A stretch of DNA of 64,000 nt from a virus. Both the position numbers and the translations under genes were made by a program. This document shows, piece by piece, positions 2,715-30,644 of this stretch (its first letter is position 1; every line of letters begins with the position of its first letter). The notes below the pieces were generated by a model. The model did no database searches, was not told the DNA's origin, and saw nothing but the letters and a program-made list of their open reading frames with translations. The DNA is taken from positions 105 to 64,104 of the IMG/VR virus record IMGVR_UViG_3300027932_000001; one strand, given 5' to 3'.

Positions 2715-4271
2715 ATGACTGAAGTTTGCCAAAAAATCTACACTACAAGAAAAATAAAACAAGGTGAGGAAGTAAATACTGTAGATAGTACAATACTTTA
2801 TGCAATACCAGACCCATGTATTTACAATGAATATATAACTAAAGTTGTGAAAATAATTAAACCATTAACGTATGAGGTTACGGAACTGCACGATAATGTA
2901 ATAATAAAGTTAAGTAATGGAGATTTTTACATATTTCCAAAAGAAATATACAATGTATTTAAAGAATTAGTAAATAAAAAGAAAGGTAACTCTAACATAT
3001 TATTATACGGTGCACCAGGCACTGGAAAGACGTCGTTCGCAGAGCTGTTGGCAAAGGTAAAAGGTTGGAAGCTACGTTATGTAGGTACTGAGATTTTATC
3101 AAAATATGTAGGAGAAACAGAAAATGAGCTGAGAAATATTTTCATCAAAGCTATTCGTAGTCAACCAATCATACTGTTCTTCGATGATGCGGAGTGGATA
3201 ATAACAAAAAGGGATCTTACGTCAGAAGATAAGAACCACACGCTTTATACAAATTTAATGAACTTAATGCTGAAATATCTAAACTTGTATAACGTTAAGA
3301 ATTATGATATAATAGTAATACTTGCAACAAACGTTAAAATAGACACGATAGACCCAGCATTAATTAGCAGAGTAAAGGAGAAGGTTTACTACACATTACC
3401 AGACCTAGAAGCAGTGTCTGCATATTTGAAAATAAAGGGAATTAGTAGTATCAGCATAAACGGTATAGAGTATAAGAGTGCAGACGATATAGCACGCTAC
3501 TTCGTGAATAATGGTATGAGTTTTAGGGATATCTCACTTTTTGTACGTTCTCCAGAGACTTTTACAATAGTTAACAAGGATGTGGCAAGGCGTGTAGTGA
3601 GCATGAGAAACCAGGATATTAAGTCCCTACTTGAAATGAAGGATTCGTTAAGCGAAATAGTTACATGCGAGATGCCTATAAAGATCTTAATTACAACGAG
3701 ATATCCGCTCACAGTAAAAGCCATAATCAGTTCAATCCTAGTTGACGTTTGTAATTATATAATATTCCAGCCTACAATAGATTCATCGATAAAGGAATTC
3801 TTATTCAATATTGAAATGTATAGAAAGTCTATAGTATTAGTCGAACAGCCTTTACTCGTTGATAATAGCAAACTGTCTGGTCTGGCAGAGATAATTTCCG
3901 ATTATCATAAGAACGTCATTATGTTCACGCAACAAAATTCAAATTTCGATAAAATAGCACAATCATATATGTACACGGTAGACGACCAGAAGATAGTATC
4001 ATCAATTAGGAAATATATGTCATCCTCACTACTTGACGAAAGGATAAAAAGAGCGAAAAACTTCATTAGAGCCGTATTGAATTTTTATGGCATAGATGTA
4101 AAAGAAATTATACTAAGAGGCGAAGTATCTAGTAAACAGACATTTGAGGACATTGCTGGGATAGAAGTGAGAATAGCTGACTCATACGACGATACTTCAA
4201 TTTCAAAATTCCTATACGGTTTCGAAAACTTTCTAAAGAAACCCTCCTTTAAAAACCCAAATAAATATTAG
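2715..4271 (+). CDS. AAA+ ATPase (CDC48/FtsH-like AAA module)
   Basis: Walker A GAPGTGKT, SKYVGETE, Walker B ILFFDDAE, ATN...IDPALISR. Confidence 0.9.
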   Translation: MTEVCQKIYTTRKIKQGEEVNTVDSTILYAIPDPCIYNEYITKVVKIIKPLTYEVTELHDNVIIKLSNGDFYIFPKEIYNVFKELVNKKKGNSNILLYGAPGTGKTSFAELLAKVKGWKLRYVGTEILSKYVGETENELRNIFIKAIRSQPIILFFDDAEWIITKRDLTSEDKNHTLYTNLMNLMLKYLNLYNVKNYDIIVILATNVKIDTIDPALISRVKEKVYYTLPDLEAVSAYLKIKGISSISINGIEYKSADDIARYFVNNGMSFRDISLFVRSPETFTIVNKDVARRVVSMRNQDIKSLLEMKDSLSEIVTCEMPIKILITTRYPLTVKAIISSILVDVCNYIIFQPTIDSSIKEFLFNIEMYRKSIVLVEQPLLVDNSKLSGLAEIISDYHKNVIMFTQQNSNFDKIAQSYMYTVDDQKIVSSIRKYMSSSLLDERIKRAKNFIRAVLNFYGIDVKEIILRGEVSSKQTFEDIAGIEVRIADSYDDTSISKFLYGFENFLKKPSFKNPNKY

Positions 4272-4294
4272 GGTATTTTTTCCAATTAAAATAT

Positions 4295-5362
4295 ATGTAT
4301 AATGTTCTTCTTAAAGTTTCATTACTAAACGATTTAAAAATATACGACCCTATCTTCAATTTATTTCCAAGAGATCAGCGTATAATGGAAGAACTAAAGG
4401 TAAGCATAAAAAAAGATGGGTTAAGGGAACCTATAGTTGTAGACGCAGACAATTATATAATAGACGGAATGACGAGATACCTCGTACTAAAAGAGTTAGC
4501 TAAGGAGAGCGATGAATATTCTAAAGTCCTCACGCTTCAATATAGAGACTTAAAAATAACCAAGGATCCGCAAACTGCAAAGTTGTTAGCACTTGTTCTA
4601 AATGTAATAAGAAGACCGATGAAACTCGAGGAGCTCGTTAATTATATTGAGGAGATATATAAGATCAGAGAATCAACTAATCAAACAGCGAGGATAGATA
4701 ATGATATAGATAAGAAGATAGAGGAAACACTTCAAAACATTACAAAAAAGAAGATACCTATCGATGACGTTAAATATATGGTGTTATGGGTAAAATCACA
4801 TTACCCGCATATTTATAATTATACAAAAAAGAAAGGAATAGTATTTAATAAGAAGGAAATAGAGAAATTATTGAGTTTAACTAAGAATTTTGCTAATGAT
4901 TTCACTGATGAAGATTTAGATTTAATTTTCTCAAATATCCGCAAGGTTATTACAGATTATTATGCTGAACTTAAAGATGCTAAGGATGCTAGGGAATTTA
5001 TGTCAAAACTTAGCGAATTATTAGAAAGAGAAAAAGCTAGAAAAACGGAGAAATTGAGTGCGAAGATAGAAAAGAAAAGGAGTGATTACCGTAGGGACGA
5101 CCATAAGGAAAACGATAATAAGAAAGAAGAAATTAGGATAGAGAAAAATAGTAAAGCAGACCAACAGCAACATATTAGCAAGGAAGAACTTTGTAAATAT
5201 ATTGACTTAGCATCTTTTAGAAAATTTATAGATAAAATTGAGGAGAAAGTTAAGAAGAATGAGGAAGTTGAGATAGATAGGGATCTTTTCTATTCTATCA
5301 AAACGATACTTGAAAATGAGTTATCTGACGGAACCGCCTTTAAATACTTCAAGGTGGTTTGA
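4295..5362 (+). CDS. ParB/Srx N-terminal domain protein
   Basis: SIKKDGLREPIVVDADNYIIDGMTRY motif. Confidence 0.8.
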   Translation: MYNVLLKVSLLNDLKIYDPIFNLFPRDQRIMEELKVSIKKDGLREPIVVDADNYIIDGMTRYLVLKELAKESDEYSKVLTLQYRDLKITKDPQTAKLLALVLNVIRRPMKLEELVNYIEEIYKIRESTNQTARIDNDIDKKIEETLQNITKKKIPIDDVKYMVLWVKSHYPHIYNYTKKKGIVFNKKEIEKLLSLTKNFANDFTDEDLDLIFSNIRKVITDYYAELKDAKDAREFMSKLSELLEREKARKTEKLSAKIEKKRSDYRRDDHKENDNKKEEIRIEKNSKADQQQHISKEELCKYIDLASFRKFIDKIEEKVKKNEEVEIDRDLFYSIKTILENELSDGTAFKYFKVV

Positions 5363-5605
5363 ATGTCTCCGTTCACTGTATTTGTTTTAGTATTTGCGAT
5401 GGCTTTTGCAACAATTATTATATTTGACGTGATTTATTTTTTACAATTACAATACGCCCACACCATAACCATTGTAAACGGACAGCAGTACGCTAACGAT
5501 TACTTCGCAACGCTATCCAGATTCGTAATATATCTCAATGTGTTCGCAATAATAGGTTTTATTCTGTCTATAGTTATATTAATAATGTACTATAAGTCAC
5601 GTTGA
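5363..5605 (+). CDS. Small two-TM hairpin membrane/virion protein
   Basis: Two hydrophobic helices, basic C-terminus. Confidence 0.65.
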   Translation: MSPFTVFVLVFAMAFATIIIFDVIYFLQLQYAHTITIVNGQQYANDYFATLSRFVIYLNVFAIIGFILSIVILIMYYKSR

Positions 5606-6366
5606 ACGACTAATGGCTTCACATTGAATGTAAATTTTGCAAGGATGTAAGATTTTTTATACAATTTTGTTCTGTTTAGGTGTGAATTCATCGGTAATAA
5701 TGCTAAAAATGCATATGCTAGGTGTTTCATATCGCTTAACATATGTTCGTCTGCAGGTAAACCGTCAAGTGGGCATACTCCACTATTATGCTCTGTAAAG
5801 TAGTGTAATTGCAATTCTGATAAGGTTTGTGATTTATACCCGCATACAGGGCATTCGTATTCGTGAGAACCATAGATGTAATGTGTAAGGTTAACGCTTC
5901 TTAGTAAATGTATCTTATCCGCTTTACCCCACACTACAATACGTCTAGACGCAGTACTAGTTACATATAGATCTTCATCCCCAATAAGGTTCCTCAGGAT
6001 ATATTCAAGAATATCTCGTTCTATGCCAGCGACGTTAACACTTAGTATTAACCTAGTGTACGTTGAATCCAATTTCATTAACTTAATTATTACATGTAAT
6101 TTTCTAGAAATAGTGTTTTCTTTCATTGACAAATCTAGCTTAGCGTTTTTCTCTATTTCATTATCAAGCCTTAATATTCTAGGTATGTACGGCTTGTCTA
6201 TCTCGCTTAGGACTCTTATGAAATCTCTATATTTCGGTATATGTATACTAATAACGTTATTCTTACCGTCAAATTTGACGTTAGGATATACGCCAATCGA
6301 AGAAAAGAAGAGGTAAGCTTTCAGTTCATCTATTTCGTCGACATCATGCATTGTAATTACGATCAT
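5590..6366 (-). CDS. C2H2 zinc-finger protein
   Basis: YECPVCGYKSQTLSELQLHYFTEH followed by CPLD...H. Confidence 0.75.
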   Translation of the reverse strand: MIVITMHDVDEIDELKAYLFFSSIGVYPNVKFDGKNNVISIHIPKYRDFIRVLSEIDKPYIPRILRLDNEIEKNAKLDLSMKENTISRKLHVIIKLMKLDSTYTRLILSVNVAGIERDILEYILRNLIGDEDLYVTSTASRRIVVWGKADKIHLLRSVNLTHYIYGSHEYECPVCGYKSQTLSELQLHYFTEHNSGVCPLDGLPADEHMLSDMKHLAYAFLALLPMNSHLNRTKLYKKSYILAKFTFNVKPLVVQRDL

Positions 6367-6371
6367 ATGTT

Positions 6372-6968
6372 TTACTTGAAATGCGTTTTAATAAACAGTA
6401 GTATCTGCATTAATTTCTCTGCAATTGTATATTTACCCTCAGTATAGTCATTGAAATGTAGCACGTCAGTTATATTATTCTCGTTTATTCCAGTTAGTTT
6501 CGTAACCTCCTCATATATCATGCTGTCCTTTATTCTTATTAGTAAGGCTTTTGTTTCAATTACTGCTAACTCGAATTGCTTGATCGAGTCCCTTACGTTC
6601 TTAGTTGTGAACGCTTCTTCAACTCTCTTCATTATTCTGTCAGACTCATTGATCACACTATCTATATTATATGTGCTTATATCCCCCTCAATTCCATCGA
6701 TTATGCTACTATCTACAGAAGACAAAGAGTTCATTTTTCTTGCAAGATTTATACAAAACGATTTAATTACCTTGGATTGTTGTTGTTTTGTACTAGCAAG
6801 CATCAACTCTTTCTTTGTATTGTTAAGTATAGTGTCAACCCCAGGTATTGGTGAGGATAAAATAATCAGCTTATAGAACGATTGAACAGGATGAAGGTCT
6901 ATTTCATTTGAGAGGCATACGTCAACAATTTTAGAGAAAAGCTCTTCCAATTGCGTGTAATTCTGCAT
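6372..6968 (-). CDS. Hypothetical helical protein
   Basis: 198-aa ORF in tight minus-strand operon. Confidence 0.65.
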   Translation of the reverse strand: MQNYTQLEELFSKIVDVCLSNEIDLHPVQSFYKLIILSSPIPGVDTILNNTKKELMLASTKQQQSKVIKSFCINLARKMNSLSSVDSSIIDGIEGDISTYNIDSVINESDRIMKRVEEAFTTKNVRDSIKQFELAVIETKALLIRIKDSMIYEEVTKLTGINENNITDVLHFNDYTEGKYTIAEKLMQILLFIKTHFK

Positions 6969-9920: not shown

Positions 9921-9963
9921 AATGAACGGCAAGCCTCACCCTTTAGGGCGTGGAGGAGGTCAG
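9921..9963 (+). mobile_element. IS200/IS605 right-end remnant
   Basis: aatgaacggcaagcctcaccctttagggcgtggaggaggtcag; same motif as at 38430-38480 and 35069-36326. Confidence 0.7.
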
Positions 9964-10066
9964 GAGGAGGAAGTCAGTGGAATGTGAAATCACAGTGGTG
10001 CGGAAAGATGAATTAAGCAAAGCGATATCCTTAAAAACTGTCAAACAAAGCATATCAAGACCTAAA

Positions 10067-29165: not shown

Positions 29166-30017
29166 TTAAAATAATTGAGAAATTTTCCTTTCTTCACTAG
29201 CTATTGGTATGTCATATTTGTACGGTGGTTTTAGTTTTTCCCTCAATAACTTTAGCGTGTTTATTATACTTTCGTAGTCGAGCTCAGCCATTAACTCGTC
29301 GTAACTGCTAGATCCATAATATGCTGAATATATTGACCAAGGTGCTTCATAAAGCAAACTGGTTACGTGTTCGACCATATATTTATGAAATAGTAGTATT
29401 TTATTCAAATTTTCAATAAACTCTTTCAGGCATGCCTTAGGTAATGCGTAGCCTTTTATTGATAATAAAGAATTGAGGAGATACAATGCGAGACCAGTAA
29501 CCTTATAGAACCCACCACCTTCTTCAGTTACAAGACCTAGGGCTAACAACGGTACTACGTCCTTTTTAGGTGCTTTAAATCTGAGCGATGAAATGTAAGA
29601 AGTGTATTTATTTAGCAGTTCGGATAAATCTCGCAACTCAATTAAACTTGATTTATGAGCCAGTAGTGTTATGACCAATGCTATAATACCTAGCTCCACA
29701 GTTTTATAATATTCATCGTCGATAAGGTCTACATCAAAATATTTCTTTATAATATCCTCAAATTTGCTTAACGCGTCAGGAGATATATTAAGAATAACAT
29801 CGCTTACAAACCCATTTTTAAAAGCTTCTATTATAAGCCTCTCGTTTTTTATTGGCTTGCTTGAAAAGAAAACATTGAGAAAGTTCATTGCTTCTTCAGC
29901 AACAATATTAGGGGAAAGGGAAGGGCTTTCCACATTTAACACCCCGAGAACAAAATACCAGGTCGCCTTTTTAGAAGATACTTCCGATTTAGAAAAACGA
30001 ATAACTAGAGCTATCAT
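29166..30017 (-). CDS. Hypothetical protein, possible winged helix
   Basis: [21 protein letters not shown] resembles a wHTH wing. Confidence 0.55.
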
Positions 30018-30305
30018 ATTTCAGTTCTTCCTTATTTCAACTGAGGTAGAGATGTTAAAGAGACATATGGAAAACTTTTAGTTCTTACTTATTTCGACAA
30101 AAGTGGGTACTGGTAAGGTAGAATGGAATAGAGTTTTTCAGTTCTTACTTATTTCAACTATTTTTACCCCGTCCCTGGAAGAGGCGGGGCAACTTCCCGC
30201 TACGACGCCCCCTTCCCTCGCTCTACCCATCTTTTAGTTCTTCCTTATTTTAGCTCACTTTCCAAAAATAAAAACTTTTCAGTAGGCACTTTTAGTTCTT
30301 CCTTA
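30018..30305 (-). CRISPR. Degenerate cas-less mini-CRISPR array, 4 full repeats and 1 partial (24 nt)
   Basis: Repeats at 30018, 30075, 30135, 30231 and 30289 (partial); minus-strand consensus GTTGAAATAAGGAAGAACTRAAAR; spacers 33, 36, 72 and 34 nt. Confidence 0.75.
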
Positions 30306-30308
30306 ACC

Positions 30309-30644
30309 CTAGAAGGGGCGAGGTTTATTGCTCGCTTCATCAGCCTCCTCCAGCATCTTATCTAGCATTTTTTCTATAAGTATGTATAAAAATTTCCCTT
30401 TTTCTTCATGTGTAAGCATACTATAATCGGAAAAAATACTGTATAAAATTACTTGTTGTCTATATGGGAGTTTTACAGCTCTAATGACATACCTATAAAT
30501 CTTATCAGCAGACATTGCAATCCCTCGCATTTTGTATAATCCATATATTGAAAGAAAATAATCGATAAGCTTCTTTGTCTGATTATAGTTAAACATAGCT
30601 GACACGGTGTTTGCAAGGTATTCTATAAAGTCTTCACGTTCCAT
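30309..30644 (-). CDS. Hypothetical protein
   Basis: 111 aa; stop codon lies inside an IS605 right-end remnant. Confidence 0.6.
   Translation of the reverse strand: MEREDFIEYLANTVSAMFNYNQTKKLIDYFLSIYGLYKMRGIAMSADKIYRYVIRAVKLPYRQQVILYSIFSDYSMLTHEEKGKFLYILIEKMLDKMLEEADEASNKPRPF

Follow-up and report, generated by a model that had tools for sequence, protein, structure and literature searches.

Why should a virus that encodes no Cas protein carry a CRISPR array, whose machinery would read it and what would it be aimed at? These questions are raised by a short cluster of degenerate repeats that begins at position 30018 of the window, the 64,000-nucleotide stretch of viral DNA analysed here, which is nearly the whole of a 64.1-kb virus record that is ∼91% complete. 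PADLOC and Pfam found no cas gene among its 76 ORFs (a match to Csa3 covers the HTH only), and the ring-nuclease candidates of the virus had no PADLOC match. Its 27-34 kb region shares 87% identity with Acidianus tailed spindle virus (ATSV; Bicaudaviridae, host Acidianus sp. CHAS). That such a locus exists was already known, as the ATSV record (GenBank KU645528, 11703-11992; 2016) labels the orthologous stretch, between the same two genes, a 'possible viral CRISPR locus'. That record names neither a host repeat nor a target; the host repeat family, a likely effector type and two targets are named here.

Organization of the viral array

The original prediction described five degenerate 24-nt repeats on the minus strand. 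Four complete copies and a 17-nt partial copy were located, and the intervals between the 24-nt repeats are indeed 33, 36, 72 and 34 nt. The degenerate repeat pattern has four matches in the window against 0.02 expected from shuffles. In host arrays the side on which the leader sits points to the minus strand of the window as the transcribed one, and degenerate repeats gather at the far end. In order of transcription, all on the minus strand, the locus would then comprise a 17-nt remnant of the 3′ part of the fifth repeat (30289-30305), a 34-nt segment (30255-30288), a degenerate repeat with an intact 3′ end (30231-30254; three mismatches to the host consensus), the 72-nt unit, a repeat (30135-30158; two mismatches), the 36-nt spacer S2 (30099-30134), the repeat that gives S1 its 8-nt tag (30075-30098; two mismatches), the 33-nt spacer S1 (30042-30074) and the last, trailer repeat (30018-30041; one mismatch). 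The 72-nt unit consists of a 5′ part, S3 (30191-30230), followed by a GC-rich 13-bp hairpin. The array is real, but with two normal spacers and one long guide-and-hairpin unit rather than four spacers. The open peptides that had been quoted for spacers 1 and 2 are present on the reverse strands of both.

The 34-nt interval previously counted as a fourth spacer behaves instead as a promoter segment. It is conserved and contains a BRE/TATA-like site (∼30268-30281) upstream of which lies the repeat remnant, although the site is less canonical in this virus than in ATSV. The distance between TATA box and transcription start is known for archaea, and on this spacing transcription would begin inside the degenerate repeat at 30231-30254 and would keep its 3′ tag. 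A host-like leader was not evident at the viral array, which showed no similarity to the leader on contig L011 (p 0.96) and marginal similarity to that on L079 (p 0.015). Rfam returned no family for the array region, and a sigma-70 promoter scan was set aside as irrelevant to archaea.

The IS605-type hairpin reported within the 72-nt interval is present at 30163-30192. Five orthologues preserve its structure, and one compensatory change occurs among them, but this number of sequences is too small for significance. The proposal that the fifth repeat was cut by an IS end fared less well. A 17-nt stretch on the plus strand (30307-30323) recurs without mismatch in an IS605-type end at ∼38446, but there is no IS body, the same nucleotides are also the end codons of the ORF at 30309-30644, and ATSV and four further orthologues lack the identity, yet have their fifth repeat cut at about the same place. 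Truncation by an IS end is thus a weak explanation. Contrary to what had been thought, the last repeat probably does not sit directly before a gene start. In each of the five same-locus orthologues the ATG at 30017 either runs into a stop or lies out of frame, whereas a GTG at 29933 with a Shine-Dalgarno site is conserved and is annotated as the start of ATSV B256. The downstream gene, the function-unassigned orthologue of B256, therefore probably spans 29166-29933 on the minus strand, and the link between the last repeat and its start would be incidental.

The repeat belongs to a host family

The viral repeats differ by 1-3 nt from an Acidianus/Stygiolobus repeat that was found ∼2,800 times, in long arrays with spacers of 34-36 nt. 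Among its carriers are Stygiolobus sp. CP850M, S. azoricus, A. infernus and Acidianus contigs from Yellowstone. The match is thus near-identical, not identical. Six spacers of the host arrays match this virus perfectly and many others nearly so. They strike both of its strands (8 sense, 13 antisense), with CCN at the 5′ side in 16 of the 24 matches to the window (≤4 mismatches). A comparison with 2,385 host spacers recovered none of the viral ones. In S. azoricus, degenerate repeats of this family also form small orphan groups apart from the main arrays (L173:5961-6022, L174:5910 and L171:19238-19331).

Hosts with this repeat encode Cas6, which adjoins the arrays, an I-D-like module and, in three hosts, type III modules. 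In Acidianus contig L101 the Cas10 beside the array (4197-6533) has an HD motif and lacks a GGDD motif, so this type III module, several subunits of which also match III-G profiles weakly, probably cannot make cyclic oligoadenylate. A Cas10 module without that output would, if this is true, be safer for a virus to borrow. The I-D-like module comprises Cas3d, Cas5d, Cas7d and an unassigned 550-aa HD protein (L169/L170, Stygiolobus sp. CP850M contig 75, and L098), and accompanies arrays whose protospacers show CCN, not GTN, the known motif for I-D of S. islandicus.

S1 matches an integrated satellite

A search of 47 Sulfolobaceae genomes with S1 identified integrated elements in two of them, G098 (30/33 positions; 32/33 for orthologous spacers) and G164 (27/33). 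At the contig level S1 matched L121 and L126 at 30/33, where its orthologues reached 32/33, and L155 at 28/33, where they reached 30/33. Matches at the 30/33 level are expected by chance ∼2 × 10−6 times in 100 Mb. The S1 of the window has three mismatches to its best target, only one of which is a G-U wobble. Matches in host housekeeping genes (L123, L124), with 8-9 mismatches, were taken as chance. The best self match of the viral spacers has 11 mismatches, and no protospacer was present in the INPHARED phages or IMG/VR contigs searched; the targets found are integrated elements.

More complete copies of the target element (L155-L157) were reached when the peptide read from the S1 target served as query for a profile search. 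This element is a 4.8-kb satellite, bounded by att repeats in tRNA-Lys (one copy at L156:7174-12033), that encodes an SSV-type integrase, A154-like and B251-like proteins (the latter an ATPase), a VP1/VP3-like capsid protein and a zinc finger resembling B129; no replication protein was recognised in the L156 copy. It is related in DNA to NC_010011 and NC_013777, which we take to be pSSVx and pSSVi, and a close relative of it was not found in IMG/VR. A154 and B251 are packaging and replication genes common to the satellite pSSVx and fuselloviruses (PMC9608457). The flanking genes are Acidianus hospitalis-like and the contigs are Acidianus, the genus infected by ATSV. In metagenome Ga0326758 the satellite is on one Acidianus contig (100113); on a second (100039), the repeat is accompanied by spacers against the virus and by a neighbouring type III module. 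Genome G098, which carries the S1 target, has no assembled array of this repeat type.

S1 is antisense to a 32-codon ORF with a TATA box at the spacing of a leaderless transcript and a long hairpin at its end, features that predict a small RNA. In L121, positions −2, −3, −5 and −7 of the viral tag are paired with the flank of the target; speculatively, such pairing might dampen the activation of Cas10 while RNA cleavage remains. Some primase-polymerase integrative plasmids (G164, L153, L158; L127:10320-10365) also contain 45 nt of the S1 target, as an insertion in the 3′ end of a SIFV gp19-like gene that is carried by 2 of the 46 homologues found.

These data provide a real protospacer for S1, as well as the host repeat match described above, and so support the original prediction of a cas-less array that borrows host Cas proteins in a conflict between elements. 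The mobile element that S1 matches is an integrated, fusellovirus-derived satellite and not, as had been suggested, another autonomous virus.

S3 is probably a diverged guide

S3, the first 40 nt of the 72-nt unit, gives a gapped alignment to the part of the satellite immediately beside the S1 target. Its score was reached by none of 500 shuffles for the window, ATSV, L059, L088, L076 and L092, and in both virus lineages discussed below S3 comes after the 3′ tag of a repeat. The satellite region beyond the S1 target is an imperfect inverted repeat, and its inside is flipped between L126 (14100-14190) and L156 (8065-8130), possibly reflecting an invertible or origin-like palindrome. Because of this flip most S3 variants pair with both orientations, while for the S3 of the window pairing is significant with just one partner, the non-coding strand of L126. 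S3 is therefore a probable third guide, old and diverged, to the S1-target region, followed by a hairpin of the IS-end type, a weaker result than that for S1. A 17-nt match of the satellite fragment in a host cas3d (E 0.08) did not extend to the viral S3 and was taken as chance.

S2 was seen in this virus only. Its target was not found in INPHARED phages, PLSDB plasmids, IMG/VR or 47 family and 325 order genomes; the best match had 10 mismatches. The sequence after the last repeat likewise had no target in the 47 genomes.

The cassette is shared between viral lineages

The cassette is present at the same locus in ATSV, L059, L076, L088 and L089, and at an unrelated locus in SMV4 (L007) and the SMV4-like contigs L002, L004, L053, L092, L109 and L114. 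It appears to have moved between the ATSV-like and SMV4-like lineages, because in L092 and L114 SMV4-like flanks surround an array 79.5% identical to that of the window. S1 is the last spacer in nine other viral contigs from the two lineages, with 1-3 substitutions. The position before it is occupied by S2 in this virus and by another, shared spacer in ATSV, L059, L088, L089, L092 and L114; S1 has been lost in ATSV, and all spacers in SMV4. Comparison of these sequences thus shows a cassette that is evidently old, in which S1 is near-fixed and the guide in front of it variable. The promoter segment, the 3′ repeat tags, the hairpin and S1 are all kept across contigs whose flanks are 80-90% identical or unrelated.

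In SMV4 (L007, 546-700) and L053 the promoter and hairpin lead into a single repeat without a spacer, and the sequence beyond this repeat contains 9 nt that are complementary to its 3′ end. This form is possibly a decoy version of the cassette.

A guide in sibling viruses matches a rare Acidianus gene

The other shared spacer, in ATSV, L059, L088, L089, L092 and L114, matches DFR85_04900 of A. brierleyi at up to 32/36 positions, in antisense. This gene (L128:16717-18942) encodes a 741-aa protein and was found in 1 of the 47 family genomes and in hot-spring metagenomes. It adjoins a cmr (type III-B) operon and has a constant 89-aa neighbour, and a distant homologue lies beside a Cas4-like nuclease. 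The protein belongs to no PADLOC, PHROG or convincing Pfam family. Its structural model, helical and rich in winged helices, is weak (pLDDT 55) and lacks a useful fold match, while an Atlas match to DUF505 scored well but is a lead only. DFR85_04900 may be a defence gene or a mobile-element remnant, and the sibling guide marks it as a candidate for antiviral activity.

Neighbouring repeats and insertion sequence ends

The mini-array was said to lie about 2.5 kb from a TIGR-like array of 38-nt period, and the latter does start ∼2.45 kb away. The TIGR-like array (32781-33850) and a 343-aa Nop-type gene (33857-34888) are orthologous to a repeat region of ATSV that is cited as previously observed in the TIGR-Tas paper (PMC12045711). 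Host CRISPR spacers target the Nop-type gene (matches at 34314 and 34800). The TIGR spacer pairs had no match in the satellite, and a single 16/18 match in L131 falls within a rough chance estimate; the two arrays thus gave no sign of a functional link. Between them is a 274-aa SMV3-like gene (31864-32688) that is not at that place in ATSV. Further along, a DDE transposase gene (35241-36290; DUF4322 and DDE_Tnp_1) appears to lie inside the palindrome of an IS605-type end (35078-36326), with halves at ∼35080-35093 and 36300-36326. Host CRISPR spacers also match two other IS605-type ends, at 9929-9964 and 38432-38467, in each case with 3-4 mismatches (L050, L108).

How the guides may act

The model we prefer, and consider fairly probable, is that host Cas6 and a host type III complex act against the satellite through viral guides. 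A short pre-crRNA would be transcribed on the minus strand from the promoter in 30255-30288. Host Cas6, given the near-identity of the repeats, would cut it into guides S3, S2 and S1 with 8-nt tags, and these would load into the type III complex. S1, probably with help from S3, would then pair with the small transcript of the tRNA-integrated, capsid-gene-bearing, pSSVx/pSSVi-like satellite, a step for which the match itself is observed, and the satellite would be suppressed during infection. There is precedent for such silencing, as plasmid-borne mini-arrays drive Cmr RNA silencing in Sulfolobales (PMC4288192). Both guides with an identified target are antisense to a predicted RNA and lack an adjacent CCN, whereas host spacers strike both strands, a bias that rests on two guides.

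In an unlikely alternative, the guides direct DNA targeting by the host I-D-like type I system, S1 and S3 striking opposite strands of a palindromic, origin-like satellite region. In L126 the two are head to head on opposite strands, the S3 of the window pairs best with the non-coding strand, and in Stygiolobus the arrays with this repeat are bordered by Cas6 and a Cas3d/Cas5d/Cas7d module. However, CCN, present at two-thirds of the host protospacers, is beside neither the S1 target nor the sibling-guide target, and the flipped interior of the inverted repeat lets S3 variants pair with both orientations. It is similarly unlikely, and if anything slightly more so, that counter-defence is the main purpose. 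The guides would then silence chromosome-resident obstacles to infection in Acidianus, the satellite being one of these, as a defence island, and the 741-aa gene another in the case of sibling viruses. The antisense match to DFR85_04900, the rarity of this gene and its position beside a type III-B operon, together with the Cas4-like nuclease near its distant homologue, are consistent with this purpose. The sibling guide is not in this window, however, the gene product has neither a recognised family nor a confident model, and A. brierleyi lacks this repeat family; the mechanism, moreover, overlaps the one we prefer, and it is the purpose that differs.

Two further explanations give the spacers no current role. 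Decoy RNAs, acting as RNA anti-CRISPRs that tie up host Cas6, Cas5 and Cas7 while the spacer matches are historical, would explain the degenerate repeats, the missing host-like leader and the spacerless single-repeat form in SMV4 and L053, and would fit the heavy targeting of this virus by host arrays. A decoy would need neither a conserved S1 nor a target, yet S1 is kept at 30-32 of 33 nt in two lineages and still matches living satellites; we regard this explanation as improbable, and the decoy role for crRNA-like RNAs raised in the original prediction consequently has little support. A decaying relic without present function seems very improbable. The repeat mismatches, the less canonical TATA box and the fact that ATSV has lost S1 and SMV4 every spacer would fit decay, but the promoter segment, 3′ tags, hairpin and S1 persist over many contigs regardless of how far the flanks have diverged.

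Suppression of the satellite through a host type III complex suggests a conflict between bicaudaviruses and fusellovirus-derived satellites, a link for which there was no report in the literature searched. A further suggestion is that a viral mini-array can be an RNA-silencing module that is stable and shared horizontally, and not a fast-turnover record of sibling viruses. More broadly, and as a tentative proposal that we think has a minor chance of being right, large spindle-shaped viruses may share a mobile, leaderless type III cassette, with near-fixed guides, that silences both a capsid-encoding satellite, which may parasitise or block them, and a rare gene, maybe part of an undescribed antiviral system. 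If true, this would be the first archaeal conflict of virus and satellite fought with a borrowed RNA-targeting Cas system, and the guide would single out a new defence gene. The named targets make the ATSV locus directly testable in Acidianus.

Comparison with known systems

The closest counterpart is the ATSV locus itself (KU645528; Hochstein et al. 2016), which has the orthologous place, the promoter segment, the degenerate repeats and the hairpin unit of 71/72 nt. It differs in having one normal spacer, that with the A. brierleyi gene match, where this virus has S2 and S1. RNA anti-CRISPRs, or single repeat units (Camara-Wilpert et al. 2023, reviewed in PMC11656645, which also names the PLE satellite), are likewise viral, cas-less, degenerate host-like repeats with their own promoter. 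By contrast, the locus described here is a four-repeat array with a target-matched spacer, the solitary repeat being confined to SMV4 and L053. The Vibrio phage ICP1 uses its own type I-F Cas proteins to target the DNA of PLE. There, too, a virus directs guides against a chromosome-resident satellite, but in the present case the Cas proteins must come from the host.

The mini-arrays of SPV1, SPV2 and ATV are cas-less, contain one or two spacers and a host-type repeat, have their own promoter and target other mobile elements (PMC6858448, Medvedeva et al. 2019); one SPV1 spacer targets an integrated pRN1-like plasmid (PMC6858448). Virus-borne origin, missing cas genes, a host-type repeat, a probable promoter of its own and a mobile-element target all recur here. 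The SPV arrays, however, have host-like leaders, and their spacers differ between the two viruses and mostly target sibling viruses (PMC6858448). In the present locus there is no leader, the repeats are degenerate, one guide is near-fixed over two lineages and the targets are antisense and without CCN; a sibling or self target was not found in the INPHARED and IMG/VR contigs searched. The locus is therefore best filed with the mini-arrays of SPV1, SPV2 and ATV as working in the same way, in the form of a leaderless, near-fixed and probably RNA-targeting cassette common to bicaudaviruses.
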